From Hellea sp. (GTDB taxonomy: Bacteria; Pseudomonadota; Alphaproteobacteria; Caulobacterales; Maricaulaceae), in NCBI GenBank assembly GCA_039977295.1, contig JBDWDN010000009.1, positions 337,717 through 401,716 on the forward strand: 64,000 nucleotides of DNA. Direction: 5' to 3'. The position numbers were made by a program, and so were the translations under genes. Each line of letters starts with the position of its first letter. Position 1 is the stretch's first letter. Below are positions 1,659-33,013 of this stretch, piece after piece. Under the pieces are notes generated by a model that saw only the letters and a list, made by a program, of their open reading frames with translations, was not told the DNA's origin and searched no databases.

Positions 1659-3281
1659 CTACTCCGCTGATGCTCTAATAAGGCCACCATTCTCGGGCGA
1701 TTCAAAATTACGGGTTACGCCATTTTGAAATTCAATACTGACAGAATTAGCCTTTTCAGCATCGCCAAGACCAAAGATCAAATCACGTCCCTGGTCAGAA
1801 CCAAGGCCCTGTGAGGTCAAAAGCTGTTTAGTCTGTGACATCCCATCAGAACCGAAAACTGTCACGCGTGCTCCGAGAGAGCGGGCTGTGTTTGGCAGCC
1901 TTACTTTTATCCAATTACGCTCTCCGCCTTTATTCATATAGGCCAGCGATTGACCGTCGAGATTAGCCCAAACAATATCTGGCCAGCCATCCCCATTAAA
2001 GTCAGAGACGATTGGGGCTATTCCGAATAGTGGGTTTTCTGCACCCGACGTCTTTTCAACGGGCCTGAAGATGTCGCCGTAATTTTGTAGAATTTTACCA
2101 GGATAGTGCTGAAGTAAATCATTAGCTGGGAAGCGAGCATAATTTTGCGCCGCCAACATGTCTTCACGTCCGTCAAGGTTCATATCCGCCATAACGGTGC
2201 CCCAGCCAAAGCCGTATTTAGCTGCATTCATAGCTTCAGAAGTGTCAGAGAATTTCAACCCCCCATCATTATGAAAGAGCATATAAGAGGGGTTAAACGG
2301 ATCGTCTTTTTTCAGATCCCCCCGCAGAATAGCTGGCGGTAACGTATATCCTACATTCGAGAAGTAGAGATCGACTAAACCGTCATTATCATAATCGCCA
2401 ACAGCCACGCCCATTGGGTAGGAATAGACAGAAGGGTTTTCTATAGGTGAGAATGTCATATCTCCATTATTAGAATACATTTCAACGCGGCCTGTATCTT
2501 GCGCGATGATGAGGTCACTATCTTTATCGTTGTCCAGGTCGGCGAACACGCCAAGGAATGTATTGTGCTGACGCCATACGCCCGCGTCCTTAGAAATATC
2601 GCGCCAATTACCTTCGCCTTCATTCAGGAAAAGATAGCTAAATCCGCCATAATTATCTGAAAAAATAGTCTCGCCCTGAACGAGGCCGATTTTGATATAA
2701 CCAGCGATATACATATCTGCGAGGCCGTCTTTATTGATGTCGCCAAAACCAATAGACAGCGGCGTTGTATTATCTGCGAGGTTCAATGGCAACTTCACGC
2801 TGCCGAATTGACCATTCGTGTTTTCATGAAACCAGATGCCGCTTTCGCGGGCCGTAAAGAGGTCTGTATCGCCGTCATTGTCTATATCCATTGAGGCCGC
2901 GCCGTGAGTGGCATCAACAGAATCTTTAGAAAAATTCAAAGAAAGTCTCTCAAACCTTTCATTTTTAAAAGCAAACATCGCATCAGCTTGGTCATTACCG
3001 CCGCCTAGGAACAGCTCGTCCCGTCCATCCCCGTCTATGTCCAGCGCCGCACTTGCGAGAAACGGTAGAGAATTTACCAAATCAGCTTTGTGCACGAAGG
3101 GGAGTTCTGCGGCCTCAAAAGCTAAGTCAGTCTCACCTTGCGGTGTTTTCTCAGCTTGCCAAAACCTGAGAGCGCCAAATGCACTGAATAGAGCAAAGAC
3201 AAGAACACCAATCAGAATGACGATTCCGCACCATATTAAAGCAAGTTTCCCAGTGTGCATTTTTTTATGAGTTTCAGGCAT
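1659..3281 (-). CDS. FG-GAP/VCBS-repeat protein with C-terminal ASPIC/UnbV domain (CRTAC1-like)
   Basis: 540 aa with an N-terminal TM/signal anchor. It has at least seven Ca-binding-like repeats (DIDGDGRDELF, DIDNDGDTDLF, GDINKDGLADMY, DLDNDKDSDLI, GDYDNDGLVDLY, DMNLDGREDML, SDFNGDGWPDIV) and an UnbV/ASPIC-like C-terminus. Confidence 0.7.
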   Translation of the reverse strand: MPETHKKMHTGKLALIWCGIVILIGVLVFALFSAFGALRFWQAEKTPQGETDLAFEAAELPFVHKADLVNSLPFLASAALDIDGDGRDELFLGGGNDQADAMFAFKNERFERLSLNFSKDSVDATHGAASMDIDNDGDTDLFTARESGIWFHENTNGQFGSVKLPLNLADNTTPLSIGFGDINKDGLADMYIAGYIKIGLVQGETIFSDNYGGFSYLFLNEGEGNWRDISKDAGVWRQHNTFLGVFADLDNDKDSDLIIAQDTGRVEMYSNNGDMTFSPIENPSVYSYPMGVAVGDYDNDGLVDLYFSNVGYTLPPAILRGDLKKDDPFNPSYMLFHNDGGLKFSDTSEAMNAAKYGFGWGTVMADMNLDGREDMLAAQNYARFPANDLLQHYPGKILQNYGDIFRPVEKTSGAENPLFGIAPIVSDFNGDGWPDIVWANLDGQSLAYMNKGGERNWIKVRLPNTARSLGARVTVFGSDGMSQTKQLLTSQGLGSDQGRDLIFGLGDAEKANSVSIEFQNGVTRNFESPENGGLIRASAE

Positions 3282-3678
3282 CTTTTTTTCCTAACAAAAG
3301 GGTGTAACCTTGCTTTCGTAGCAAGAAAAACAGAGTTGCATTTAGTGCAAGCAGAGCCAACGCCATAATAAACAGGCTATGCCCCATACCTGGAACGTTT
3401 ATGCCAAGCCATGGAGAGAGGTGAAACCCAATTGCTCCAGCAAGAACGGCAAGTCCACCCAGTGCGCCTAATAGACGAGTTCGCGGCACCAAGATGAGAA
3501 TAGCCGTTATAATTTCTGCCACGCCCGTTAGCATTCTTACCACAGGTTCAAATATCGAAATGCCGGACTTTTCTGCAATCACAGAGAAGATCGGGTTGGA
3601 AGCTCCGAATTTCTGCAAGCCAAAAAACAAAAATCCAGCCGTCACAGCTAGTGATAAGGCTATTACTAATTTTCTCAT
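3274..3678 (-). CDS. DoxX-family membrane protein
   Basis: 134 aa with four hydrophobic segments in a DoxX-like arrangement. Its stop overlaps the start of the CRTAC1-like gene. Confidence 0.6.
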   Translation of the reverse strand: MRKLVIALSLAVTAGFLFFGLQKFGASNPIFSVIAEKSGISIFEPVVRMLTGVAEIITAILILVPRTRLLGALGGLAVLAGAIGFHLSPWLGINVPGMGHSLFIMALALLALNATLFFLLRKQGYTLLLGKKDA

Positions 3679-3864
3679 GCGAAACCTCCCGGGGCAACAT
3701 TAATAAGGAAAAACTTTAGTTCAACTAAATATCAGACGTTCATATTAGGGACTAGGTTACATTATTATTATAAAAATATATTCGATATTTTGCAAATCGC
3801 CGTGATAGATTTAATTAAATCTAGTCAAACAGACACCCTCATGTGAGGCAAAAGGAACACTTTA

Positions 3865-4533
3865 ATGATAGCCGCTTTTTCTCTCCTCTTAATTTTTGCA
3901 ATTTCATTCTTTCTTGTTCGCCTCGCCTCAGTTGCCCTTAGATTGACAGGTCTTCCTGAGCAAAATGCCAGATTTCAGGCCATGTCGGCATTAACAGGAA
4001 CAGGCTTCACGACGACCGAGGCTGAAATGGTCGTAAACTACCCCATTAGGCGTAAGATAATTTCCTGGCTCATGGTTTTCGGAAATTTAGGCATTGTGTC
4101 TGTTTTATCAACCTTAATGATATCTTTCATTCATATAGATGCAGATATGCATTCTATATTGCTACAGCTAGCATGGATGATCGGGATGACCATTTTGTTC
4201 TTTGTGATTATGCTCAACCCTCTTGTTGACGGACTGATTTGCGGCTTAATTGGTTTCGTGCTCGAAAAATGCACCTTTCTGGGGGGACGTCATTACCGAA
4301 GACTGTTGCAGTTGGGGAATGAGCTTAGCATTAGTGAGCATCAATTCTTTGCTAGTGAGAGCCTTAGCCCAGATAAAGTAATGGCTGAGCTAGGCAATTT
4401 TTCTGTGCTGGCAGTCAAACGTAAAACAGGAAAAACGGAAGCTTATTCTCTTGATATGGGCCTCATTAATCCAGGAGACAGCCTAATTTTATTCGGTCAT
4501 GACAATGCGCATGATGGCTTCAAGGCTTCGTAA
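3865..4533 (+). CDS. ion-channel-like membrane protein with C-terminal TrkA-C (RCK_C)-like domain
   Basis: 222 aa. N-terminal TM helices carry a pore-like TGTGFTT segment, and the C-terminal ~70 aa resemble a TrkA-C regulatory domain. Confidence 0.45.
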   Translation: MIAAFSLLLIFAISFFLVRLASVALRLTGLPEQNARFQAMSALTGTGFTTTEAEMVVNYPIRRKIISWLMVFGNLGIVSVLSTLMISFIHIDADMHSILLQLAWMIGMTILFFVIMLNPLVDGLICGLIGFVLEKCTFLGGRHYRRLLQLGNELSISEHQFFASESLSPDKVMAELGNFSVLAVKRKTGKTEAYSLDMGLINPGDSLILFGHDNAHDGFKAS

Positions 4534-4539
4534 ATAGCC

Positions 4540-4884
4540 TTATTTGTTTTGATTGCCCCTCACGTCAAGGATGGCATCAATGAGATCTTGCGGCACGGCA
4601 TTAGGGACATCAATATCCTCATAAGGGAGTATATGACTTTCCGCTTTATATGCCGCAATATAGGTCTTTAGGAAGTTTCTGCACATGGGGCAGACGCGCA
4701 TGTGACGCTGAAATAATATGACTTGTTTTTCCGTCAGATCACCCTCGACATAATCATAGATAAAATCATTGAATTCACGGCATGTAATCATTCGAGGTGA
4801 TACACGCAAATACCAGCCGCCGATTGGCATAACAGGCCGCATTAAAACGTCGAGCCTTAATAGCTTTAATACATCGCTGATCAT
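4540..4884 (-). CDS. zinc-binding anti-sigma factor (ZAS, zf-HC2 type)
   Basis: The C...H-x3-C-x2-C motif (C36...HMRVCPMC) is present. A 4-bp ATGA overlap links it to the upstream ECF sigma gene, and a GGGGG Shine-Dalgarno sits 5 nt before the ATG. Confidence 0.6.
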   Translation of the reverse strand: MISDVLKLLRLDVLMRPVMPIGGWYLRVSPRMITCREFNDFIYDYVEGDLTEKQVILFQRHMRVCPMCRNFLKTYIAAYKAESHILPYEDIDVPNAVPQDLIDAILDVRGNQNK

Positions 4885-5519
4885 GACTTGCCCCCGTTTT
4901 GATAGGGGAAAAAATACTTGCCCAGACTGAGTTTCAGCTTCATGCGGGCGCGATGAATTCTAACTTTTGCATTGCTCTCTGAGATTTCTAACATTTCCGA
5001 AATCTCAATAATTGAAAATTCCTCATGATCTTTCATCAATAAGGGAATTCTATATATATCTGGCAACTCTTCGATAGCTTTGTTAAGTCGTTGAAGATTC
5101 TCTTTCTTCATAATATCTTGTTCAGGCGTAGACATTTCTGCCCATAAAGGCGCGTTTAAAAGGCCAGCACTATTATAAGAAACGATGTCGTCAATGTCGG
5201 CATAAAAATCTGGCATCCGTTTGTTTTTCCGTAAAACATCCAAAGCTTTGTGAGTAATGATACGGTTTATCCAGCTGTTTAATGCATTTATATCTCGAAC
5301 TGCATTTAACTTTCTGTAAGCAGATAAAATACCATCTTGCACAGCATCTTCGGCTAGGCTTTGGCACTTCACATAACCGTATGCTCTCTTGATGTAGCGC
5401 CCATAATTAGCGTTTACCACGTTCATGAAGTGGTCATGGGATATGAGCGGCGATGTCTCAATTAATGAGGGATCATCGTCTGTTTTATTTTTTGGTGTGT
5501 TTTCACTTGTCCCACTCAT
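4881..5519 (-). CDS. ECF-type RNA polymerase sigma-70 factor
   Basis: 212 aa with sigma-70 region 2 and a region-4 HTH (...SNAKVRIHRARMKLK). It is co-transcribed with the anti-sigma gene. Confidence 0.8.
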   Translation of the reverse strand: MSGTSENTPKNKTDDDPSLIETSPLISHDHFMNVVNANYGRYIKRAYGYVKCQSLAEDAVQDGILSAYRKLNAVRDINALNSWINRIITHKALDVLRKNKRMPDFYADIDDIVSYNSAGLLNAPLWAEMSTPEQDIMKKENLQRLNKAIEELPDIYRIPLLMKDHEEFSIIEISEMLEISESNAKVRIHRARMKLKLSLGKYFFPYQNGGKS

Positions 5520-5803
5520 GAGCCGTAAGGATTATTCTAAATTTAGTTATACTCAAGAGAATAATGTAATACTGGGGAGATAGCTTTGTCATTATTACTG
5601 AACTCTCAAATATTAATTGTAACCTATGAGTTCGGAAATCGTCTTATCTACTTACGCCGTCAGGCTTTGGAGGACATCAGTATCACAATAAACAGCACAT
5701 ATATGGAAGATTCGCAAAGGACTCAAATTCATGGTAACCGCGTTCCTCACAACCTCGTCGCAACGATATTTAGAAAGTTCCCAATTCTCATAGGTGCACC
5801 CAC

Positions 5804-7780
5804 ATGAAAACCGATTTAGTATGGCATAAAGTTGCAGATGTTGCGGAGCTCCCCGAAGGCCGCGTTATGTCGGCCAAAGCCGGTATACGCACTGTCGCAC
5901 TGTCTCATTTTGACGACCAATACGCAGCCATGGACAATAAGTGTCCCCATCAAGGCGGCCCACTCGGCGAAGGGTCCATTGAAAAAGGCGTTGACGGACA
6001 GTGCTGGATCCGGTGCCCTTGGCATGGCTGGGATTTCGACCCTTTGACTGGCAAACCGCCTGGAGGTCATGAAGATAGCGGTCAAGAAACTTATCCCGTT
6101 GAAGTCCGCGATGACGGTATCTATGTCGCCCTCGAAGCTGAGCCAGAGCACACCCGCACGGTAACTGACGTCATGGCTGAGACGATGGTAAATTGGGGCG
6201 TGACCTCAGTTTTCGGTATGGTTGGGCATTCCAATCTTGGCTTAGCAGATGCCATTCGCAGACGCTGCGTTGATGGCGAAATGAATTATTACGGCATTCG
6301 CCATGAAGGCGCAGCATCATTTGCCTGTTCTGGCTATGCGAAATTAACAGGATTACCCGCAGCATGCCTTGCCATCGCCGGACCGGGTGCCACTAATTTA
6401 ATGACTGGATTATGGGATGCCAAAGTCGACCGAGCCCCGCTACTGGCCTTAACGGGTCAAGTCCAAGTACAGGTATTTGGCCCCGGCGCGTTTCAAGACA
6501 TTGATTTGAAAGCCGCCTTCGCGCCTGTTACAAAATTTAGTCAAAATGTGTTGAGTTCTTCCCATCATGCAGAGCTTGCAAATCTTGCCTGCAAATCATC
6601 ACTTGATAATCGCGATGTCGCCCATTTGATTTTCCCTGACGATGTTCAGACCCTGCCAGCAGCGAAAGATGCTAAAGCAGGCTCCCCCTCTGGGCGCATG
6701 GCGAATATGAATGTCGCGCCTTCTGCGGAAAGCTTAAATGCGGCAATCGACCAACTGAAATCTTCAAAGCAACCTCTCATCATTGTGGGATATGGCGCGA
6801 AAACGGCGATGAATGACATTGTAAAATTTGCTGAACTGCTGAATATTCCCGTTGCCACGACATTTAAAGCTAAGGGCCAAATCGCTGACAGCCACCCCTT
6901 GGCGGCGGGCGTTCTAGGCCGTTCAGGGACACCTATTGCGAGTTGGTTCATGAATGAATGCGATGTCATTCTTGCTCTAGGGGCCTCCTTTTCAAACCAT
7001 ACGGGAATCGAAAAATCAAAACCCATTATTCAAGTCGATTTTGACCCTGCACAACTCGGGCGTTTCCACCCTATTGAGGTGCCCGTGCTTGGGGAAATTG
7101 GTATCACCACGCGCGCCCTCACAGTGGCTCTGGCAGGTCATCAAACACAGGACCAGCGCGAGGAAGTTGCGGAACGCTGGAAAATTTGGCGAAGTGAGAA
7201 GAAAAGCCGTCTTGAAGATGATAACAATAAGGGCCTTAATTCTGCATCGATATTTGCAGAGCTAACCAAACTTATCCCAAATGACGCCGTCATTGCTGTT
7301 GATGTTGGCAATAATACTTATTCCTTTGGACGATATTTTGAGTGCGCCCAACAAAGTGTTCTTATGTCAGGATATTTGGGCTCAATCGGTTTCTCATTCC
7401 CGGCTGCCATGGGAGCTTGGGCTGCGACGCAAGACCAAGACGCTTATAAAGGCCGTAAAGTTGTTTCCATAAGCGGCGATGGCGGGTTTGGGCAATATGC
7501 AATGGAATTCACCACAGCCGTAAAATACGGCATGAATGTCACGCATATCCTTTTGAATAATTCCCAGCTTGGAAAAATATCTAAAGAGCAACGCGCCGGT
7601 GATTGGGATGTTTGGCAAACAGATTTGCATAATCTAAGTTTTGCCGGTTTCGCCCGTGCCAGCGGCGGGCATGGCACAAAAGTTACTAAAATCGAAGACC
7701 TCGCCAAAGCCGTTAGTGAGGCGCTCGCACATAACGGCCCGTCACTTGTAGAAATTATCTCTGATCCTGATTTAATCTAG
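5804..7780 (+). CDS. Rieske [2Fe-2S] domain fused to thiamine-pyrophosphate enzyme (acetolactate synthase/pyruvate oxidase-like)
   Basis: N-terminal CPHQGGPL...CPWHGW (Rieske CxH...CxxH motif). Downstream are TPP N-, middle and C-domains (GPGATNLMTGL, ISGDGGFGQ...NNSQLG). Confidence 0.8.
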   Translation: MKTDLVWHKVADVAELPEGRVMSAKAGIRTVALSHFDDQYAAMDNKCPHQGGPLGEGSIEKGVDGQCWIRCPWHGWDFDPLTGKPPGGHEDSGQETYPVEVRDDGIYVALEAEPEHTRTVTDVMAETMVNWGVTSVFGMVGHSNLGLADAIRRRCVDGEMNYYGIRHEGAASFACSGYAKLTGLPAACLAIAGPGATNLMTGLWDAKVDRAPLLALTGQVQVQVFGPGAFQDIDLKAAFAPVTKFSQNVLSSSHHAELANLACKSSLDNRDVAHLIFPDDVQTLPAAKDAKAGSPSGRMANMNVAPSAESLNAAIDQLKSSKQPLIIVGYGAKTAMNDIVKFAELLNIPVATTFKAKGQIADSHPLAAGVLGRSGTPIASWFMNECDVILALGASFSNHTGIEKSKPIIQVDFDPAQLGRFHPIEVPVLGEIGITTRALTVALAGHQTQDQREEVAERWKIWRSEKKSRLEDDNNKGLNSASIFAELTKLIPNDAVIAVDVGNNTYSFGRYFECAQQSVLMSGYLGSIGFSFPAAMGAWAATQDQDAYKGRKVVSISGDGGFGQYAMEFTTAVKYGMNVTHILLNNSQLGKISKEQRAGDWDVWQTDLHNLSFAGFARASGGHGTKVTKIEDLAKAVSEALAHNGPSLVEIISDPDLI

Positions 7781-7825
7781 CTTCGCCATACAACCTAATG
7801 CCCGCAAACTAAAAGAAAGACTATT

Positions 7826-9442
7826 ATGAAGCCCATTGTTATCGCCAAATGGAATCACCTTGAAGACCGCAAACCGGCGGGGGCGATTGTCGCCAATGTT
7901 GATTTGGTTATCGTCCGTTATGAAGACAATGTCTCGGTTTTATATGGGCGGTGCCTCCATAGAGGAGCCTTACTTGAAGACGGCCATGTCGACGGCGACA
8001 ACCTCATTTGCGGCGTGCATAATTGGGACTTCCGTATCGATACGGGCGTGAGTGAATATGACAATAAAGAAGCGCTGAATAAATTTAAGGCGTGGGTCGA
8101 AGACGGCAAAGTCTATGTGGACGAAGACGAAGTTTCAGCGTGGCATATAGATAATCCGCAGCCTTATAATAGAGAGAGTTACCTCGGGCAATATGCCGAC
8201 CCCTCACATGGTGATCCTGCGGAGCCTTACACAGGTCTTATTCAGTCATATGCGCGGGACGGCCTGTCTAAAACGGGGCATCACGGCGCGAGTGCGGCCA
8301 TGGGCGTGCCGCTAAATGAGCTGCCGCGCTGGGAAGATATTCAATTCATCACAGCACAACTTCATAAAGTTCCCTTACTTGACGACGATCCCGTCAATAC
8401 AAAGACAATCATTGGGCCACGCGCTAAAAAGCCTCTTGAACTCGACATTCCCCTATTCGTTTCAGATATGAGTTTCGGCGCTTTGTCAGCATCAGCCAAA
8501 GTCGCCTTAGCCATGGGCGCAGAAAAAGCTGGCACGGGTATATGTTCTGGTGAAGGCGGAATGTTGCCTGAGGAACAAGAGGCCAATAGTCGTTATTTTT
8601 ATGAGCTCGCCTCAGCGCGTTTTGGCTTTTCAATGGATAAACTTTCGAAAGTTCAAGCCTTCCACTTCAAAGGCGGCCAAGGCGCAAAAACTGGAACAGG
8701 CGGGCATCTGCCAGGAGAAAAGGTCAAGGGCGCTATCGCCAAGGTTCGAGGTTTGCCCGAGGGAGAGACAGCGATTTCACCTTCGCGCTTTCCGGAATGG
8801 ACGACGACAGCTCAAATTAAAGATTTTGCCGCTGATGTCCGCGAGTTTACAGGCGGTATTCCGGTCGGTTATAAGCTCTCAGCTCAGCACATCGAAAAAG
8901 ATATTGATGCGGCCTTAGAGGTTGGCGTTGATTACATTATTCTGGATGGTCGTGGCGGCGGTACAGGGTCCGCGCCTCTTATTTTCCGTGATAATATTTC
9001 CGTTCCGACCATTCCTGCGCTTGCGAGAGCCCGAAGGTATCTTGACAGCACTGGAAACAAAGACGTCACACTCGTTATTACCGGCGGTCTGCGAACACCC
9101 GCAGATTTCGCCAAAGCGTTAGCATTAGGCGCCGACGCAATTGCGGTCTCTAATTCAGCACTACAAGCTATCGGGTGCCTTGGCATGAGAGCGTGCCATA
9201 CGAATAATTGCCCAGTGGGTATCGCGACACAAAAAGAGCATCTGGTTGCCAGGTTGATTGCTGAGAAATCGGCTGAGCAACTCACGCGTTTCTTCGACAC
9301 ATCCGTATCGTTGATGAAGATACTTGCGCGGGCCTGTGGCCATGACGATTTCAGTCAGTTTAATCCGGATGATCTTGTGACATGGAAGCGTGATATGTCC
9401 GATTTATCGGGCGTGAACTTCGGCGGGATTGGATATAAATAA
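7826..9442 (+). CDS. Rieske [2Fe-2S] domain fused to glutamate-synthase-like FMN/Fe-S domain (GltB domain-2-like)
   Basis: N-terminal CLHRGALL...CGVHNW. The C-terminal ~400 aa match the glutamate synthase FMN domain (GGEGG..., LVITGGLRTPADFAKALALGADAIAVSNSAL, CHTNNCPVGIATQ). Confidence 0.75.
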   Translation: MKPIVIAKWNHLEDRKPAGAIVANVDLVIVRYEDNVSVLYGRCLHRGALLEDGHVDGDNLICGVHNWDFRIDTGVSEYDNKEALNKFKAWVEDGKVYVDEDEVSAWHIDNPQPYNRESYLGQYADPSHGDPAEPYTGLIQSYARDGLSKTGHHGASAAMGVPLNELPRWEDIQFITAQLHKVPLLDDDPVNTKTIIGPRAKKPLELDIPLFVSDMSFGALSASAKVALAMGAEKAGTGICSGEGGMLPEEQEANSRYFYELASARFGFSMDKLSKVQAFHFKGGQGAKTGTGGHLPGEKVKGAIAKVRGLPEGETAISPSRFPEWTTTAQIKDFAADVREFTGGIPVGYKLSAQHIEKDIDAALEVGVDYIILDGRGGGTGSAPLIFRDNISVPTIPALARARRYLDSTGNKDVTLVITGGLRTPADFAKALALGADAIAVSNSALQAIGCLGMRACHTNNCPVGIATQKEHLVARLIAEKSAEQLTRFFDTSVSLMKILARACGHDDFSQFNPDDLVTWKRDMSDLSGVNFGGIGYK

Positions 9443-9633
9443 TGCTAAATATTGCCCAGTATATTTCTTACGGTTTGGGCGGTTACGTCCTGATCGGATT
9501 AGTCTTCGCGCTCTATTTCGTGACGCGCGGTGTTCGTAATGAAGCCATCGCGGGAAAGAGTTTGATCCTCCGTATATTGCTTCTACCCGGCGCCGTGTTG
9601 TTGTGGCCTGTTTTACTCAAGGCAAGATCATGA
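9442..9633 (+). CDS. small membrane protein (63 aa)
   Basis: Two hydrophobic helices; translationally coupled within the operon. Confidence 0.3.
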   Translation: MLNIAQYISYGLGGYVLIGLVFALYFVTRGVRNEAIAGKSLILRILLLPGAVLLWPVLLKARS

Positions 9634-9733
9634 AGCGCGCGCACCGCCAAGTGCATAACATTATTTGGTTGATACTTCCCTTAGTGTTGATCACGATTTT
9701 ATGGATGGCCTTTGGCATCCATGGGAGCCAATT

Positions 9734-10765
9734 ATGAGCCATGATTTTGTTCCCGTTCAGTGGAACCGTCAAAAATTTTTCTATGACGGGATATTGCTTG
9801 TAGCTATTTTTGGATTTCTAGCGAGCTTTATCCTGCTTGGACTACGAACTCCATCAGCCGACGTCTCTATCTTGATGATCCGCGGTTTCGGTAGCTGTGC
9901 GATTGTGTTGTTGCATATTATTTTGGCCATCGGGCCGTTGGCGCGGTTATCAGCGCGTTTCAAGCCCCTGCTATATAACCGCCGTCATTTAGGCGTTGTT
10001 ACAGCATTGATTGGCCTGGCACATGGCGGGTTAGCCTTGATGTGGTATCATGGGTTTGGAGTTATCAATCCAATAGCATCTGCCATTGGTGGGTATGGGG
10101 ATTACGGCGTTCCAATTGAATTCCCATTTGAGAGCCTTGGGTTAATCGCACTAATTATTCTACTCATCATGGCCGCCACCAGTCACGATTTTTGGTTGTC
10201 GCGCCTAAGACCTCCTGTCTGGAAGGCTTTGCATATGAGCGTCTATGTCGCCTATGCGGCTTTAGTCGGGCATGTGGCGCTGGGAACAGCGCAATTTGAT
10301 AAAGGGTCGGGCCTCCTAATTGCACTGACGATTGGGGCTGTGAGCCTAACAGGTTTGCATCTTGCAGCGCTCTTAAAAGGACGTAGTCTCGATACAAAGT
10401 CTTCTCAGGAGTCAGATTGGATTAATGTAGGCGAACCTATGTCTATCCCCATGAATAAGGCTGTGACCGTAACTCCGAAGTCAGGAGAACGCATAGCCAT
10501 TTTCCGGCAAAGCAAAGGCGTTTCTGCTATCGTGGCTATATGCTCTCATCAAAACGGGCCTCTGGGTGAGGGCTGTATTCGAGACGGGCTGATCACGTGT
10601 CCCTGGCACGGATTTCAGTTTGACCCCGAGACTGGGGCTGCTCCCGCACCATTTGAAGATCGTGTGCAGACACACGAAGTTAAAATCGAAAATGGAGAGG
10701 TTTGGGTTAAAGCTGCGCCTGATGTGCTAGGCACCCCCCGCAAAGCTGTTGAGGTGACCTCATGA
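9734..10765 (+). CDS. membrane cytochrome-b-like (ferric-reductase-type TM) domain fused to C-terminal Rieske domain
   Basis: The track ORF starts at a TTG at 9665; an ATG at 9734 carries a GGGAG RBS. The N-terminal domain has ~6 TM helices with conserved His (HIILAIG, GLAHGGL, WKALHMSVY). The C-terminus carries CSHQNGPL...CPWHGF. Confidence 0.6.
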   Translation: MSHDFVPVQWNRQKFFYDGILLVAIFGFLASFILLGLRTPSADVSILMIRGFGSCAIVLLHIILAIGPLARLSARFKPLLYNRRHLGVVTALIGLAHGGLALMWYHGFGVINPIASAIGGYGDYGVPIEFPFESLGLIALIILLIMAATSHDFWLSRLRPPVWKALHMSVYVAYAALVGHVALGTAQFDKGSGLLIALTIGAVSLTGLHLAALLKGRSLDTKSSQESDWINVGEPMSIPMNKAVTVTPKSGERIAIFRQSKGVSAIVAICSHQNGPLGEGCIRDGLITCPWHGFQFDPETGAAPAPFEDRVQTHEVKIENGEVWVKAAPDVLGTPRKAVEVTS

Positions 10766-11517
10766 GTAATGAAGATGATTTTTATGTTGGTTACGGACCT
10801 CTTCCCAATAAGGATCGCCGATTTTTATTAAAAGCTGTCCCTGCCGGGCTCTTAGGGATCGCGGGAGCGGGAGCATTTGTTGGGACGCGCGGGGCCTCCG
10901 AAGGCGGCGGACAATGGGAGACTGGGACGCCCGTAACGTTACAGGGCCGGATAGGGTTTCATCCTTATCCCGTGCTGTGGGTTGGCGAGGTCGGACATGT
11001 CATCGCGGGCATTGGAAAAAAGAGCGCAGATTCTTATTGCGCAGTATTTGAAGGGCAAAACGTTGAAGTCACAGGCGTTAGAATTATACGTAATGATTGT
11101 TTTATGCTGGGTGTCGCCAAAGGCGGCATAAAAGCTATTGAGCAATCTACAGCTCCTGTTCCGACGCCTGCTCCAATGAAGGATGTCTCTATCATTGGAG
11201 AAGTTCTAGACGCGCAGTGTTTCATGGGTATTATGAACCCAGGATATGGTAGAACGCATCGCGGATGTGCGACGCAGTGTATTCGGGGCGGGCAACCTGT
11301 CTTTTTTTCATTCGGACTTAGCGGGCGTAAGGGACCATCAGGCCCACAAACTTGTGGCGGCAATGGGTTCCTCTTAGCGAATGCTACGGGCGGAAAAATA
11401 AATACCGAGATTTTAGACCACGTGGCCGTGCCTGTTACGATTGACGCTAAATTAGAAAAAATTGGGAACTTGTACCGCCTTGTCTATCAATCAGGAAGTT
11501 TGAGACGACTATCGTGA
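10762..11517 (+). CDS. Tat-signal secreted Cys-rich protein, unknown function
   Basis: Twin-arginine motif DRRFLLKAVPAGLLG plus 8 Cys in the mature part. GAGGTGA RBS. It overlaps both neighbours. Confidence 0.45.
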   Translation: MSNEDDFYVGYGPLPNKDRRFLLKAVPAGLLGIAGAGAFVGTRGASEGGGQWETGTPVTLQGRIGFHPYPVLWVGEVGHVIAGIGKKSADSYCAVFEGQNVEVTGVRIIRNDCFMLGVAKGGIKAIEQSTAPVPTPAPMKDVSIIGEVLDAQCFMGIMNPGYGRTHRGCATQCIRGGQPVFFSFGLSGRKGPSGPQTCGGNGFLLANATGGKINTEILDHVAVPVTIDAKLEKIGNLYRLVYQSGSLRRLS

Positions 11518-12725
11518 CGCTCAATCTATTCTTAATATTTGGAACTGTCTTTTTTGTCTTTGCATTAGTTTCTAAGCGTATTCAGGGCACAATTTTCACG
11601 CCGCCAATACTGTTCACCATAGGCGGCCTTTGTTTATCAACCTTACTTATGGAAACAGCCGGTTTGACCTATAATGAGGGCGGGCTTCACGTTATAGCAG
11701 AACTAACACTCATTCTTGTGTTAGCAGCAGACGCCTCACAAATTTCGTTCGATAAATTAAAAAAACAAAAAGCAATTCCCTTTCGCTTATTACTTATTGG
11801 GTTGCCGCTCATCATCTTAATGGGGACATTGGTTGGGCATACTGTATTCCCCGGAATCGGGTGGTATGAGGCCGCATTGATTGCCGCTATTTTGGCCCCA
11901 ACAGATGCAGCTCTAGGGGCCTCCGTCTTAGCTGACAAAACTGTTCCGCTCAAGATACGCCAAGGCTTGAATGTTGAGAGCGGGTTGAATGACGGCATCG
12001 CCTTACCCGCTGTTCTATTTTTCGCCTGTTTTTTGAACATGGCGCACCAATCTGGCGAAGAAAACTGGCTCATTTTTCTTAGTCTTCAACTCATCATTGG
12101 CCCTATTGCTGGGCTTATAGTAGGATGGGTCGGGGGTCACCTTATTGCTTGGGCTGCGAAAAAAGAGTGGATGACATCAGAGTTTCAAGGCGTAGCCGCA
12201 ATAGCCCTCGCCGTGATTGCCTTCGCTGTTGCCGAAGTCTGTCATGGCAACGGCTTTATTGCAGCTTTCGTAGCGGGCCTAACTTATGGCAATCTGCATG
12301 TCAGTTATTCAAAATTTCTGCATGAATTTACCGAAACAGAAAGTCAGTTTTTAAGCTATTTGACCTTCTTTCTATTTGGAGCCCTAATTTTACCAGAGGC
12401 CATACCGCATATTAATGGGCAGATCATTCTGTATGCAGTCTTTAGCCTCACGTTAATTCGCATGTTACCAGTCTTCATTGCGATGTTAGGATTAGGTCTT
12501 CGTTTACCGGCGATTGGATTCATGGGCTGGTTTGGTCCAAGAGGACTTGCGTCTCTTCTCTTTGCACTTCTGATTCTGGAGGATTTAAACGTTCAACAGG
12601 CCGAATTCATTCAAACTGTTGTCGCCACCACAGTCCTTTTCAGCGTCATTCTGCACGGGGTCACAGCCGCGCCTTTAAGTAAGAAGCTTGGGCAGGCTTA
12701 TAGCGATAACGGTCTAAAGAACTAA
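11514..12725 (+). CDS. Na+/H+ (cation:proton) antiporter, CPA1 family
   Basis: 403 aa with 10-12 TM helices in a CPA1-like arrangement. GTG start overlaps the preceding stop. Confidence 0.7.
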   Translation: MTLNLFLIFGTVFFVFALVSKRIQGTIFTPPILFTIGGLCLSTLLMETAGLTYNEGGLHVIAELTLILVLAADASQISFDKLKKQKAIPFRLLLIGLPLIILMGTLVGHTVFPGIGWYEAALIAAILAPTDAALGASVLADKTVPLKIRQGLNVESGLNDGIALPAVLFFACFLNMAHQSGEENWLIFLSLQLIIGPIAGLIVGWVGGHLIAWAAKKEWMTSEFQGVAAIALAVIAFAVAEVCHGNGFIAAFVAGLTYGNLHVSYSKFLHEFTETESQFLSYLTFFLFGALILPEAIPHINGQIILYAVFSLTLIRMLPVFIAMLGLGLRLPAIGFMGWFGPRGLASLLFALLILEDLNVQQAEFIQTVVATTVLFSVILHGVTAAPLSKKLGQAYSDNGLKN

Positions 12726-12971: not shown

Positions 12972-14189
12972 ATGACATCAACATTACAAAACCCCCAGCG
13001 TAAGAGCTATGATATTGTCATCATTGGGGGCGCTATAATGGGGGCCTCTACTGCGTGGTTTTTGTCAAATAATAAAGATTTCGATGGATCCGTTTTAGTG
13101 GTAGAGCGTGACCCAAGCTATGAGAACTCCTCTACCATGCATACAAACTCTTGTATGCGGCAACAATTTTCGGCAGAGCTAAATGTTCGCATTTCTCAAT
13201 TCGCGGCAGAGTTTGTAAAAAATATCAGAGAATACATGGATGGGGATGAGCTTGTGCCGCAGCTGTCCATTCAGAATTTCGGCTATATGTATTTTGCCGA
13301 TAATGAAGATTTTGCCGATGTTTTGCGTGAGAGCCAAAAGGTTCAGCGTAATGCAGGGGCTGCTACACAGCTTTTTAGTCCCGCTCAAATCAAGCAAAAA
13401 TATCCGTTTTACAATGTCGATGATATTGTCTTGGGTTCAATCAATCTTATCGATGAAGGCTATTGGGACGGAACAGCTGTGTTTGATGCTTGGCGGCGTC
13501 AATCCCGAAAAAGCGGTGTGGAGTTTATAGCCAATGAAGTTGTCGCCATGACCAAAAGAGCTGACGGCACACACGTTGATAGCGTCACCCTTAAATCCGG
13601 CGACGTCATTGCCTGCGGCAAGGTGCTGAACGCATCTGGGCCGCGGGCCTCCCGCACCGCGCGGATGGCTGGCATAGATGTGCCTGTGGAGCCTCGCAAA
13701 CGCTTTAGCTGGATATTCGCAGCGCAACAGCCACTGGGTCAAGATCTGCCGCTTACGATTGATCCGTCCGGCGTCCATGTGCGCGAGAATGGCGGCGGGA
13801 CTTATCAATGCGGCGCGCATTCTCATATTGACCCCGCCGTAGACTATGATGATTTTGTGATGGATTTTGATATTTGGGAAAACCATGTCTGGCCCATACT
13901 TGCAACGCGCATTCCCCAATTTGAAGCCGTCAAAGTCCAGAGCGAATGGGCCGGGCATTACGCCTATAACACATTTGATCACAATGCGATAATGGGCCCG
14001 CATGATGACGTTGAAAACTTCTATTTCCTCAATGGATTTTCGGGCCACGGATTGCAGCAATCGCCGGCTATGGGGCGCGGAACAGCAGAGATGCTGATTT
14101 ATGGCGAATATAGAAGCCTTGACCTCTCGCCTTTTAACTATAGCCGTATTCCAAGTAATAATCCGATAATTGAAAAGGCCGTTATTTAA
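12972..14189 (+). CDS. FAD-dependent oxidoreductase (DAO family; sarcosine oxidase beta/D-amino-acid dehydrogenase-like)
   Basis: N-terminal Rossmann motif YDIVIIGGAIMGASTAWFL; 405 aa. Confidence 0.75.
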   Translation: MTSTLQNPQRKSYDIVIIGGAIMGASTAWFLSNNKDFDGSVLVVERDPSYENSSTMHTNSCMRQQFSAELNVRISQFAAEFVKNIREYMDGDELVPQLSIQNFGYMYFADNEDFADVLRESQKVQRNAGAATQLFSPAQIKQKYPFYNVDDIVLGSINLIDEGYWDGTAVFDAWRRQSRKSGVEFIANEVVAMTKRADGTHVDSVTLKSGDVIACGKVLNASGPRASRTARMAGIDVPVEPRKRFSWIFAAQQPLGQDLPLTIDPSGVHVRENGGGTYQCGAHSHIDPAVDYDDFVMDFDIWENHVWPILATRIPQFEAVKVQSEWAGHYAYNTFDHNAIMGPHDDVENFYFLNGFSGHGLQQSPAMGRGTAEMLIYGEYRSLDLSPFNYSRIPSNNPIIEKAVI

Positions 14190-14216
14190 CGTTCGGCTAT
14201 ATAAGGTGATATCCCT

Positions 14217-15053
14217 ATGAAACGCATAGTCTTAACTGGAGCCGCTGGGCGCCTGGGGTCTTATTTGCGAGAGCCTTTAAGTAAGTTAGCAGACGAACTC
14301 GTCTCTTCTGATATCGTCACTGACATTGGTAAACTCTATCCAAATGAGCGGTATATGAAAGCCGATATCGCTGAAATGGACGATATTATGCCACTCTTAA
14401 AAGGCGCAGATATGGTTGTTCATTTCGGCGCCTTTGTCGATGAAGGACCGTTTGAAAAGCTGCTTGGCCCAAATTTTATCGGCGCTTATAATATCTGGGA
14501 ATCTGCCTATAAAAACGGCCTAAAGCGCGTTGTTTACGCCAGCTCAATTCATGCTGTTGGGATGTATCCGAAGAATGAGTTTATCGGTACGGATGTGCCT
14601 CATCGTCCAGATACTTTTTATGGACTTGCCAAATGTTTTGCTGAGGATTTAGGAAGCCTTTACTGGGATAAGCTCGGGCTCGAAAGCGTTCACATGCGCA
14701 TTCTTTCATGCGCCCAAGTCACAAACCCTCGCGCCGTCGGATCATGGCTATCTTATGATGATCTTATCCAGCTTGTAGAAAAGTCGGTCACCACACCCGT
14801 GACAGGATTTAGCATTGTCTATGGGGTCTCCAATAATGACCGCGCGCCGGTTGATAATGCTAAAGCCAGCCATTTAGGATACCGTCCCAAGGACAACGCA
14901 GAACAATTCGCCAAAGAGGTTTACGAGGCCAACCCGCCGCTTAATCCTCAAGATATTGGCGATTACTGCCACGGCGGCCCCTTTGCTTCAATAGACCTTG
15001 GACATGGCGCTATGGGGGGTGTGAATATTGTGGATGATAGGAAGAAAATTTAG
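14217..15053 (+). CDS. NAD-dependent epimerase/dehydratase-family SDR, uronate dehydrogenase (Udh)-like
   Basis: MKRIVLTGAAGRLG Rossmann motif, YGLAKCF (YxxxK), length 278 aa. The overall pattern resembles Udh. AAGGTGA RBS. Confidence 0.55.
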   Translation: MKRIVLTGAAGRLGSYLREPLSKLADELVSSDIVTDIGKLYPNERYMKADIAEMDDIMPLLKGADMVVHFGAFVDEGPFEKLLGPNFIGAYNIWESAYKNGLKRVVYASSIHAVGMYPKNEFIGTDVPHRPDTFYGLAKCFAEDLGSLYWDKLGLESVHMRILSCAQVTNPRAVGSWLSYDDLIQLVEKSVTTPVTGFSIVYGVSNNDRAPVDNAKASHLGYRPKDNAEQFAKEVYEANPPLNPQDIGDYCHGGPFASIDLGHGAMGGVNIVDDRKKI

Positions 15054-32942: not shown

Positions 32943-33013
32943 TCCGAGGTAGCTTAGTCAAAGCGCCGGACTCTGGATCCGGAGAGCGCGGGTGCAAATC
33001 CCGCCCTCGGACC
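32943..33013 (+). tRNA. tRNA-like element (anticodon-loop CUCUGGA gives CUG, Gln) with non-canonical D- and T-loops; possibly a degenerate tRNA or integration-site remnant
   Basis: A cloverleaf can be drawn with a 7-bp acceptor stem (TCCGAGG/CCTCGGA), a 5-bp anticodon stem (CCGGA/TCCGG) and a 5-bp T-stem (GCGGG/CCCGC). The T-loop is TGCAAAT (G at position 55 where U is expected), the D-loop lacks GG, and no CCA is encoded. A TTGACC -35-like hexamer lies ~50 bp upstream. Confidence 0.35.

Follow-up and report, generated by a model that had tools for sequence, protein, structure and literature searches.

The window analyzed herein, a 64-kb stretch of DNA from a metagenome-assembled genome (MAG) of Hellea sp., carries at 4540-12725 a gene cluster in which three adjacent genes each encode a complete Rieske CxH...CxxH motif fused to a different partner: a pyruvate-oxidase-like thiamine pyrophosphate (TPP) enzyme (Rieske-TPP), the FMN domain of glutamate synthase (Rieske-GltS), and a membrane cytochrome b of the ferric reductase domain (FRD) type (FRD-Rieske). 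The results described below suggest that the cluster is controlled by an extracytoplasmic function (ECF) sigma factor and consists of two modules, and that the Rieske-tagged enzymes may export electrons via FRD-Rieske to a periplasmic partner protein of 251 aa; we assign this reading a probability of about 0.5. As judged from the sequences, the two modules are separable, although interleaved in the window. The membrane module, composed of a 63-aa small transmembrane (TM) protein, FRD-Rieske and the 251-aa protein, is present in many phyla and probably includes a DoxX-like protein as a further member, and the soluble module, composed of Rieske-TPP, Rieske-GltS and a CPA1-family antiporter, accompanies the membrane module in Alpha- and Gammaproteobacteria, with changing order and orientation, and is also found without it. 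The features of the cluster are as follows.

4540-4884, minus strand: soluble zinc-binding anti-sigma factor (ZAS; zf-HC2 28.3 bits, residues 35-69)
4881-5519, minus strand: ECF sigma factor, 212 aa (Sigma70_r2 and r4_2; TIGR02937 82.8 bits against a cut-off of 42.9)
5618-5643, plus strand: ECF-type candidate promoter TGTAACCTATGAGTTCGGAAATCGTC, -35 TGTAAC, -10 CGTC, 160 nt upstream of the Rieske-TPP ATG
5804-7780, plus strand: Rieske-TPP (Rieske 56.2 bits, residues 7-88; TPP_enzyme_N/M/C 105/119/115 bits)
7826-9442, plus strand: Rieske-GltS (Rieske 44.0 bits, residues 4-79; Glu_synthase PF01645 294.6 bits)
9442-9633, plus strand: two-helix membrane protein, 63 aa (homologs before FRD-Rieske)
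9665-10765, plus strand: FRD-Rieske (Ferric_reduct PF01794 47.3 bits against 28, residues 76-200; Rieske 51.1 bits, residues 252-331)
10762-11517, plus strand: 251-aa partner protein (alignment and AF2 model)
11514-12725, plus strand: CPA1-family cation/proton antiporter (Na_H_Exchanger 126.8 bits)

Translation of the window gave the open reading frames (ORFs) at exactly the coordinates of an earlier note on this DNA, and a Pfam search bore out all of its domain assignments (TPP enzyme, GltB-type FMN domain, ferric-reductase cytochrome b, CPA1, and ECF/ZAS). Rieske (PF00355; the three adjacent genes all scored above its cut-off of 20.3 bits), TPP_N/M/C, PF01645 and PF01794 were all above the gathering cut-off. 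The genes had been described as all translationally coupled, which held for three overlapping junctions (9442, 1 nt; 10762-10765, 4 nt; 11514-11517, 4 nt) but not for the gaps at 7780/7826 (45 nt) and 9633/9665 (31 nt). The idea of a self-contained single operon had to be given up in favor of two modules, with Rieske-TPP and Rieske-GltS as facultative partners.

The membrane module

To describe the surroundings of FRD-Rieske, the 80 loci with the best matches were used, of which 13 belonged to the same family (Algimonas, Hellea, Litorimonas, and Robiginitomaculum) and 67 were non-family loci from Acidobacteriota, Verrucomicrobiota, Planctomycetota, KSB1, Gemmatimonadota, Cyanobacteria, Bacteroidota, and Alpha- and Gammaproteobacteria. 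A homolog of the 251-aa protein (25-36% identity) directly followed FRD-Rieske in 60 of the 67 non-family loci, and in 26 of the 29 that had at least 9 kb on both flanks. Furthermore, the two proteins were found fused into a single polypeptide in three phyla, namely in L039 (Ca. Acidoferrum), L049 (Planctomycetota) and L073 (Gemmatimonadales), and in the database proteins P0419 and P0474, in the order Ferric_reduct, Rieske, linker, DFY[VI]GY, TM helix, and Cys-motif domain. These Rosetta-stone fusions indicated that FRD-Rieske and the 251-aa protein act as one unit, and the order of their parts placed the domain with the Cys/His/Met site on the opposite side of the membrane from the Rieske domain. 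On this comparative evidence, the two proteins constitute a widespread, near-obligate pair.

In the Pfam scan of FRD-Rieske, the C-terminal domain was assigned to Rieske, and no FAD_binding or NAD_binding match was obtained. Six hydrophobic helices were evident from hydropathy and six long helices from the AF2 model (pLDDT 80). Across 67 sequences, H108 and H120 in TM3, H190 and H203 in TM5, and the Rieske ligands C293, H295, C312 and H315 (CxH...CxxH at residues 293-315) were invariant, and H129, H174 and H232 were likewise conserved. According to a survey of the superfamily, YedZ/STEAP "short forms" have two or three of the four histidines and one heme, and the NOX/FRE "long forms" keep all four (PMC3591440). 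Since all four heme histidines are kept in FRD-Rieske as in these long forms, it is predicted to be a two-heme FRD in which the Rieske domain stands in place of the FAD/NADPH module. The MsrQ equivalog NF003831 gave 26.6 bits, below its cut-off of 130. The positive-inside rule put the Rieske domain in the cytoplasm; in the AF2 model, this domain matched the soluble Rieske ferredoxins CarAc, T4moC, BphF and the NDO ferredoxin with a TM-score of ~0.8 (1vck, 2de5, 1vm9, and 2qpz), and structurally it is modeled as a Rieske ferredoxin of the shuttle type. Database gene calls are 343 aa long, matching ATG at 9734 and not TTG at 9665, and the former is likely the true start. A scan of one genome per GTDB species yielded 445 confirmed relatives and a search of 5.8 billion proteins at least 7,999 at E <= 1e-10, and these carry generic names alone, such as "Rieske 2Fe-2S domain-containing protein". 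The stretch Y-N-R-R-H (Y104 to H108) at the cytoplasmic end of TM3 was also invariant; in MsrQ, the adjacent arginines R77 and R78 bind FMN (PMC12525009).

The 251-aa protein is 100% identical to NCBI ABJN69_07775 and, like the 63-aa protein, had no Pfam or NCBIfam match; all of its relatives are labelled "hypothetical", and a Pfam search with all 41 members of its alignment gave nothing beyond weak DUF5818 matches in 6. A profile search collected 2,473 clusters at 50% identity, 1,162 of them with E <= 1e-30. The N-terminus carries a universal (D/E)F(Y/F)(V/I)G(Y/W) peptide (DFYVGY in the window), predicted to be cytoplasmic, which is followed by one TM helix and two OB-like beta-barrels (AF2 pLDDT 83). 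The motif C153-x4-M158-x7-H166-x2-C169-x3-C173 was invariant, the same or a near variant being present in all 58 complete sequences. Because of the basic residues before the TM helix and the natural fusions, the OB domain is predicted to be periplasmic. Comparison of the model with solved structures revealed no specific homolog.

As far as the motif can tell, the Cys/His/Met site most likely binds a metal (Cu or Fe) or forms a thiol center with redox activity. The set of CxxxC and His ligands recalls Sco-type copper sites. The earlier note had taken the protein to be Tat-exported, and the segment KDRRFLLK is indeed present in the window and in alphaproteobacterial relatives; RR occurs, however, in only 33 of 60 homologs, so that Tat export was rejected as a defining trait of the family and is lineage-specific at most. 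Since the Tat motif is found in only some lineages, a periplasmically loadable metal ion or thiol center is more plausible than an Fe-S cluster. In L088 (12441-19950), the order was a small TM protein, FRD-Rieske, an ArsC-family protein, the 251-aa homolog, two small ORFs, a YHS/HMBD P-type (copper-type) ATPase, and a multicopper oxidase, which hints that the periplasmic site handles copper. YHS-domain and DUF1223 proteins were recurrent near the membrane module, and these neighbors, together with the Cu ATPase and the multicopper oxidase of L088, are weak hints of metal or thiol chemistry.

Other small membrane proteins recurred beside the pair. Homologs of the 63-aa protein directly preceded FRD-Rieske in 27 loci across phyla, a 190-aa single-pass protein was often found beside it, and the DoxX-like protein of the window clustered with 146-aa DoxX_2/MauE-like proteins adjoining FRD-Rieske in distant phyla (L016, L020, L035, L039, L048, and L063).

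Some neighborhoods of the pair had features of their own. After the pair in L016, L018, L021, L029, L043, L050, L063, L071 and L080 (Gammaproteobacteria, Verrucomicrobia, and Acidobacteria), we observed a block encoding an OlsB-like N-acyltransferase (PF13444), an OlsA-like acyltransferase (PF01553), DinB, TANGO2, and an 850-aa alpha/beta-hydrolase-VTT(DedA)-ATP-grasp protein, with a PAS sigma-54 activator frequently present; the block suggests a link to aminolipid or envelope remodeling. On the Rhizobium leguminosarum WSM1689 plasmid NZ_CP007050 (L086, 33668-39429), the core pair (RLEG3_RS31990 and RS31995) was accompanied by genes for an SDR, two small hypothetical proteins, TetR, an ECF sigma factor, DUF1109 and NrsF-family proteins, and a chlorite-dismutase-family protein.

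The soluble Rieske enzymes and the antiporter

In Rieske-TPP, the CxH...CxxH motif lies at residues 47-74. The best NCBIfam match was the pyruvate oxidase PRK08611 (386.7 bits, below the cut-off of 742), PRK09124 scored 287.7 bits (below 792), and the protein stayed under every NCBIfam equivalog cut-off. The best PDB match was E. coli PoxB (3eya, E 1.9e-59, PoxB residues 3-526), and the GDG...NN TPP motif and the context of the catalytic Glu (RHE) were common to both. The PoxB C-terminal membrane tail is absent: of the 572 residues of PoxB, none beyond 526 is aligned, and only 6 more residues remain in the query. The 120 best database relatives listed were at least 71% identical, and almost all had the Rieske + TPP fusion. 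Rieske-TPP is a PoxB/pyruvate-oxidase-like TPP enzyme with an N-terminal Rieske domain and, from this resemblance, presumably a flavoenzyme.

In Rieske-GltS, which has its CxH...CxxH motif at residues 43-65, residues 213-491 aligned to GltB 867-1140, and the [3Fe-4S] motif C-x5-C-x4-CP was kept, CLGMRACHTNNCP being aligned with CVMMRACHLDTCP of GltB. The amidotransferase, central and GXGXG domains are absent, and the GltB model gave 131 bits against a cut-off of 1047. In the comparison loci, the Rieske-PoxB and Rieske-GltS fusions retained 62-74% identity across classes.

A third N-terminal Rieske fusion, Rieske-FMN_red (Rieske and NADPH-dependent FMN reductase PF03358, ~366 aa), was found in KSB1 and Planctomycetota directly after the 251-aa gene, at the following positions.

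L037, 13105-14205: Rieske-FMN_red
L044, 6799-7899: Rieske-FMN_red
L049, 11829-12878: Rieske-FMN_red

A class-V aminotransferase gene lay further downstream. The 80 loci contained no further kinds of Rieske protein beyond FRD-Rieske, Rieske-TPP, Rieske-GltS and Rieske-FMN_red. The Rieske domains of Rieske-TPP, FRD-Rieske and Rieske-FMN_red were 30-36% identical to one another and shared the signature CxH-x-(G/N)GPLG-x-G...CPWH(G/N)(W/F)xF, from which the Rieske domain of Rieske-GltS diverged more.

For the antiporter, the closest NCBIfam model was that of a K+/H+ antiporter (146.5 bits, below the cut-off of 355). Outside the family, CPA1 genes were found only in loci that also had Rieske-TPP or Rieske-GltS (8/8, and 7/7 with at least 9 kb flanks), and they stood beside Rieske-TPP without FRD-Rieske in L085 and L087; by its distribution, CPA1 tracks the soluble enzymes and not the membrane pair. 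K+ transport genes recurred around the soluble module, namely the gene for an Ion_trans (voltage-gated-type K+ channel) protein between Rieske-TPP and CPA1 in the gammaproteobacterial loci L025, L033, L055 and L062, and that for a 222-aa TrkH-like protein in the window.

Linkage of the two modules across genomes

The neighborhood-conservation check recovered the three Rieske fusions together again in 9 of the 67 non-family loci, with changed order and orientation, so that the outcome named in the earlier note as a refutation, three genes never co-located elsewhere, did not come about. These 9 loci derived from Gammaproteobacteria, other Alphaproteobacteria, and one Bacteroidota bin. The co-occurrence of the soluble enzymes with FRD-Rieske was as follows.

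All non-family loci (n = 67): Rieske-TPP in 16, Rieske-GltS in about 15, either in 22, both in 9
Non-family loci with at least 9 kb flanks (n = 29): Rieske-TPP in 12, Rieske-GltS in 9, either in 13, both in 8

Seven non-family loci thus had only Rieske-TPP with FRD-Rieske, and about 6 only Rieske-GltS. The 13 loci with at least 9 kb flanks and either enzyme showed at least four different arrangements, and the gene orders of the window and of other loci include the following (sm, small TM protein; FRD, FRD-Rieske; 251, 251-aa protein; signs, strands).

Window: TPP-GltS-[sm-FRD-251]-CPA1
Arenicella, Cellvibrionaceae, Pseudohongiella: GltS-[sm-FRD-251]-TPP-K+ channel-CPA1
Marinicaulis, Parvularculaceae: TPP(-) GltS(+)-[sm-FRD-251] CPA1(-)

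Varied gene order with retained proximity is a classic signature of functional coupling, and the varied order and kept proximity observed across classes thus argued for such coupling here.

In L014 (Phycisphaeraceae MAG, 9914-12298), the stop codon of FRD-Rieske (11054-11056) was followed by an in-frame Glu_synthase ORF without a Rieske domain of its own, and no 251-aa gene was present at the locus. An FRD-Rieske-GltS triple fusion was rejected here, as an in-frame stop lies between the ORFs and the linker is non-homologous; the adjacency was kept as evidence, and the arrangement could reflect either a mistake of assembly or a variant in which the two parts are split or fused.

The linkage was also viewed from the side of Rieske-TPP, in a sample of eight loci with relatives ~71-72% identical. 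Three of the eight contained Rieske-GltS (two with a DUF5996 gene between), and three contained CPA1. In L087, a ZAS/ECF pair of the same type was divergent from CPA1-GltS-DUF5996-TPP. DUF5996 genes (PF19459) were located between Rieske-GltS and Rieske-TPP at 7151-7987 in L083, 2140-2976 in L084 and 3977-4825 in L087, which are loci without FRD-Rieske, and none was found in the window. NnrU-family membrane proteins flank the cluster in L083.

Regulation and extent of the unit

The spacer between the ECF sigma and Rieske-TPP genes was poorly conserved except for TTGTAAC(C/T)-N15-CGTC on the plus strand (5618-5643 in the window). This motif, typical of ECF promoters in its "AAC" at -35 and its "CGT" at -10, was present in all five loci with the ECF pair (the window, L004, L006, L009, and L013) and was not found in four family loci without the pair (L003, L005, L008, and L010). 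TGTAAC[CT]-N14-17-CGTC had two exact matches in the 64-kb window, against a mean of 0.26 in shuffled sequences. The second copy, which shares with the first the form TGTAACC-N15/16-CGTC, lies on the minus strand (3761-3735) before the DoxX-like gene; L009 has the same motif before DoxX, and L004 a version with one mismatch. Judging from the motif, 5618-5643 and 3735-3761 are candidate promoters that may be driven by the ECF sigma factor. The earlier suggestion of ECF control is thus supported by a conserved ECF-type promoter aimed at 5804 and confined to family loci with the sigma/anti-sigma pair.

The second copy before the DoxX-like gene implied that the regulon probably takes in the DoxX-like/FG-GAP operon (3678 down to 1659). 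The right edge of the unit proposed earlier (4540-12725) was retained, and the left edge of the co-regulated unit is probably 1659, with the following additional features.

1659-3281, minus strand: FG-GAP/VCBS (ASPIC/UnbV) repeat protein, 540 aa, with an N-terminal TM anchor (FG-GAP_3 130.5 bits, UnbV_ASPIC)
3274-3678, minus strand: DoxX-like four-helix membrane protein, 134 aa (clustering with DoxX_2/MauE-like proteins, TM segments)
3735-3761, minus strand: ECF-type candidate promoter TGTAACCTAGTCCCTAATATGAACGTC, 57 nt before the start codon of the DoxX-like gene
3865-4533, plus strand: three-helix membrane protein, 222 aa, K+-channel/TrkH-like (weak NCBIfam TrkH match, TM segments)

The FG-GAP gene follows the DoxX-like gene, overlapping it by 8 nt, and probably belongs to the same ECF-driven operon. 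It was syntenic in L004, L005, L009 and L013, relatives were encoded near the module in L055 and L014, and the protein may belong to the system. The 222-aa protein, which has a "TGTGFTT" pore-like loop, a C-terminal soluble domain and a weak NCBIfam TrkH match (E 5.6e-4), is at most a possible member of the system; its conservation did not extend beyond the family, in which its gene stands between those for the DoxX-like protein and the anti-sigma factor (synteny in L004, L005, and L013). On the other side, CPA1 is followed in the window (12972-15053) by genes for a DAO-family FAD oxidoreductase and an SDR/epimerase, and in the sister loci L001, L006, L007, L009 and L013 by a 550-aa gene of another family whose sequence is malic-enzyme-like by look. 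As the downstream genes differ between the window and the sister loci, the conserved cluster ends at 12725.

The anti-sigma and sigma genes overlap by 4 nt. The anti-sigma factor has no TM segment, and its ligands C35, H61, C65 and C68 (H-x3-C-x2-C) were read from the translation; their spacings (26, 4, and 3) equal those of the ligands C11, H37, C41 and C44 of the redox-sensing RsrA. The RsrA model gave only a weak match (21.7 bits against a cut-off of 62.5). Going by this RsrA-like ligand pattern, the anti-sigma factor probably releases expression under thiol-oxidative stress.

The ECF sigma factor of the window was 33% identical to that of L087, where two TGTAACC elements were found; the -10 spacing differs there, and an ECF promoter in this locus was counted as suggestive at most. 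No autoregulatory ECF promoter was found upstream of the sigma gene, Rfam detected no riboswitch, TPP riboswitch included, in the 160-nt leader, and a single tRNA gene (32943-33012) was its sole match in the whole window. Generic sigma-70 promoter and terminator scans remained at chance level. In Verrucomicrobia (L070 and L080), too, the core pair is flanked by ECF sigma genes, the R. leguminosarum pair has an ECF sigma and its DUF1109/NrsF-type anti-sigma factor in the vicinity, and in other lineages PAS-domain sigma-54 activators are found in place of ECF. A precedent is known from Azospira, where chlorine stress leads to induction of the divergent yedY1Z1-mrpX operon through SigF/NrsF (PMC4436054).

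Proposed mechanism and alternative explanations

In the mechanism that we propose, Rieske-TPP would oxidize pyruvate or a related 2-oxo acid, Rieske-GltS would act on glutamate/2-oxoglutarate or a similar pair, and a Rieske-tagged dehydrogenase found elsewhere would take NAD(P)H as its substrate. These dehydrogenases would split their two-electron substrates to single electrons via flavin or Fe-S cofactors, and the N-terminal Rieske domain of each soluble enzyme would be a one-electron outlet that docks Rieske-to-Rieske on FRD-Rieske, replacing the quinone outlet of PoxB and the ferredoxin or beta-subunit input of GltS. The cytoplasmic Rieske domain of FRD-Rieske would then feed two b-type hemes stacked across the membrane in the six-helix domain of the NOX/FRE type, and the outer heme would reduce the periplasmic tandem-OB domain of the 251-aa partner. 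The task may be MsrPQ- or STEAP-like, with a new donor logic and a new acceptor. We thus infer an NAD(P)H-independent export of electrons to the periplasmic Cys3/His/Met site under oxidative stress. Outward electron movement is favored by the inside-negative membrane potential, and pyruvate oxidation is strongly reducing. Speculatively, the CPA1 antiporter and K+ channels would balance charge and pH. The earlier note had described a membrane-anchored electron-transfer chain. Of the chain drawn here, the analysis shows which domains are present, which ligands are conserved, the topology, the gene linkage and the promoter motif; the cofactors bound, the direction of electron flow, the substrates, the terminal acceptor and the inducing signal are our inference.

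In a broader form of this proposal, Rieske-outlet dehydrogenases for pyruvate, glutamate and NAD(P)H would constitute a widespread route that bypasses the NAD(P)H/quinone pools and leads through the two-heme FRD to Cys3/His/Met OB proteins for envelope repair or Cu/Fe reduction under oxidative stress, with K+/H+ transporters compensating charge as Hv1 does for NOX2. We put this generalization forward tentatively, considering it somewhat more probably wrong than right.

Several observations weigh against electron export as proposed. Most loci with FRD-Rieske and the 251-aa protein had no Rieske enzyme nearby. Conversely, FRD-Rieske was within 9 kb in just one of the eight loci of the Rieske-TPP side (L088), and four of the eight had none of the other cluster genes nearby, so that the Rieske domain of Rieske-TPP either has another partner in many genomes or its partner is encoded elsewhere. 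Because the 80 loci represent the closest matches to the query, the co-location rates are upper estimates; many of these loci are MAG contigs. A GltS-type enzyme is normally reductive and is therefore possibly a sink instead of a source, and the Cys/His/Met site is without structural precedent, which makes the acceptor chemistry a guess.

The reductive bent of such enzymes leads to a different explanation, namely a closed cytoplasmic couple in which electrons from pyruvate pass through Rieske-TPP to Rieske-GltS, which reductively aminates 2-oxoglutarate. This would provide NADPH-independent glutamate synthesis, possibly for K+/glutamate homeostasis via CPA1 and the K+ channels. FRD-Rieske and its 251-aa partner would then form a separate module that shares the regulon alone, or would act as an overflow valve. 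The [3Fe-4S]/FMN path of GltS physiologically runs toward glutamate, and the 3Fe-4S motif is kept in Rieske-GltS. Rieske-GltS and Rieske-TPP occur together in L083/L084 and L087, where FRD-Rieske is not found close by, and as a divergent pair in L088; CPA1 goes with the soluble enzymes and not with FRD-Rieske, the Ion_trans channel lying between Rieske-TPP and CPA1 in the four loci named above. Such a couple is nevertheless unlikely in our judgment: each enzyme is also found with FRD-Rieske in the absence of the other (the 7 TPP-only and about 6 GltS-only loci), the membrane module is placed between the two enzyme genes in several arrangements, and in L014 the Rieske-less GltS domain directly follows FRD-Rieske. 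An explanation by mere adjacency, through chance or recent rearrangement, would suit the frequent occurrence of Rieske-TPP without other cluster genes nearby, but is hardly credible in view of the shared ECF promoter logic and of the 9 non-family loci from different classes in which all three fusions come together in shuffled order and orientation.

The other two alternatives retain the coupling of the modules and redirect the electrons. FRD-Rieske might anchor pyruvate:quinone and glutamate:quinone oxidoreductases as an entry to respiration, with electrons passing from Rieske to the hemes and on to quinone, possibly with the DoxX-like protein, and with the 251-aa protein as a subunit needed for structure or assembly. 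In favor of this, the solved protein most closely related to the TPP domain, PoxB, is a pyruvate:ubiquinone oxidoreductase, DoxX-like proteins are recurrent neighbors of FRD-Rieske, and two-heme cytochromes b often serve quinone sites. Binding of ubiquinone, possibly as the acceptor, is also reported for the FRD protein MsrQ (PMC12525009). However, the invariance of the Cys3/His/Met site, and the fact that the periplasmic domain is nearly always encoded next to FRD-Rieske or fused to it, argue for a redox role of the 251-aa protein beyond that of a scaffold, and ECF, sigma-54 and stress-type control and the DinB, DUF1223, YHS and Cu ATPase neighbors are unlike core respiration, which makes respiratory entry rather improbable. 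Inward flow, in which a periplasmic donor or quinol would supply the cytoplasmic Rieske domain by way of the hemes and the 251-aa protein for reductive chemistry such as that of Rieske-GltS, is conceivable in that the architecture could in principle serve either direction and the chemistry of GltS-type enzymes is reductive. It would nevertheless drive electrons against the inside-negative potential into ferredoxin-type Rieske centers, and Rieske-TPP and Rieske-FMN_red would be oxidative donors, not sinks; we regard it as very improbable.

Comparison with known systems

To our knowledge, the FRD family (NOX, STEAP, FRE, and MsrQ) is the main known outward electron route, and every characterized member uses NAD(P)H through flavins. 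Each domain of the present system is known singly, and we rate the whole as a variant on the theme of transmembrane electron transfer by FRD proteins as represented by NOX, STEAP and MsrPQ.

A close parallel is MsrPQ (YedYZ), including yedY1Z1-mrpX of Azospira suillum, in which an FRD heme b protein likewise passes electrons from a cytoplasmic donor to an adjacently encoded periplasmic partner, and in which, in Azospira, a divergent ECF pair and oxidative (chlorine) stress are involved (PMC4436054; PMC12525009). MsrQ, however, has one heme and FMN and no Rieske domain; it receives its electrons from an NADH:flavin oxidoreductase and works with MsrP, a molybdoenzyme exported by Tat. In contrast, FRD-Rieske has four heme histidines and a fused Rieske domain, its partner is an OB-fold Cys3/His/Met protein with no Mo-enzyme domain, and its candidate donors are the Rieske-tagged TPP and FMN enzymes. 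With NOX, FRE and STEAP, of which STEAP and FRE reduce Fe(III) and Cu(II), FRD-Rieske has in common the six helices, two His pairs in TM3 and TM5, and a cytoplasmic redox module leading to the outer face (PMC3591440). Where NOX/FRE have an FAD/NADPH dehydrogenase domain, FRD-Rieske has a Rieske ferredoxin domain, which would receive single electrons from another protein and not from NAD(P)H, and it differs from all three in its dedicated, predicted periplasmic partner.

Rieske-TPP shares the TPP_N/M/C fold, GDG...NN and RHE with E. coli PoxB and Lactobacillus pyruvate oxidase, and differs from PoxB in the added N-terminal Rieske domain and the absence of the C-terminal lipid-binding tail. Likewise, Rieske-GltS has PF01645 and the [3Fe-4S] motif in common with the FMN domain of GltB/Fd-GltS, but consists of the FMN domain alone with a fused Rieske domain in place of the ferredoxin/beta-subunit input. 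The Rieske ferredoxins CarAc, BphF and T4moC have the same fold as the C-terminal domain of FRD-Rieske, and the transfer from such ferredoxins to the Rieske center of their partners is a precedent for the Rieske-to-Rieske step proposed here; unlike in the Rieske oxygenase systems, Rieske domains are fused here to a membrane cytochrome b and to TPP and FMN enzymes, and no oxygenase is present. As for regulation, the ligand pattern of the soluble zinc anti-sigma factor and the form of the ECF promoter are like those of SigR-RsrA; the sequence match to RsrA is weak, and the anti-sigma factor may sense redox conditions.

The earlier note did not recognize the combination as a described pathway. 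The FRD+Rieske(+FMN) architecture itself was already catalogued in 2013 as model "M4", with no function assigned (PMC3591440), but no publication describing the system was found in the literature searched, which yielded only that catalogue and the analogous MsrPQ work. The obligate partner family, Rieske-PoxB and Rieske-GltS as a linked set, and the ECF circuit appear to be undescribed in this literature.

The findings thus bring to light a large bacterial branch of the FRD family, spread over more than ten phyla, with a fused Rieske domain and an obligate periplasmic partner, neither of which is functionally annotated. R. leguminosarum WSM1689, with RLEG3_RS31990/RS31995, and Algimonas species offer testable parts of the system in cultured organisms. 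Rieske-PoxB and Rieske-GltS would be new enzyme classes that couple the oxidation of 2-oxo acids and amino acids to one-electron carriers, and, if the proposed mechanism is true, the cluster would supply the cell envelope with stress-inducible, NAD(P)H-independent reducing power.

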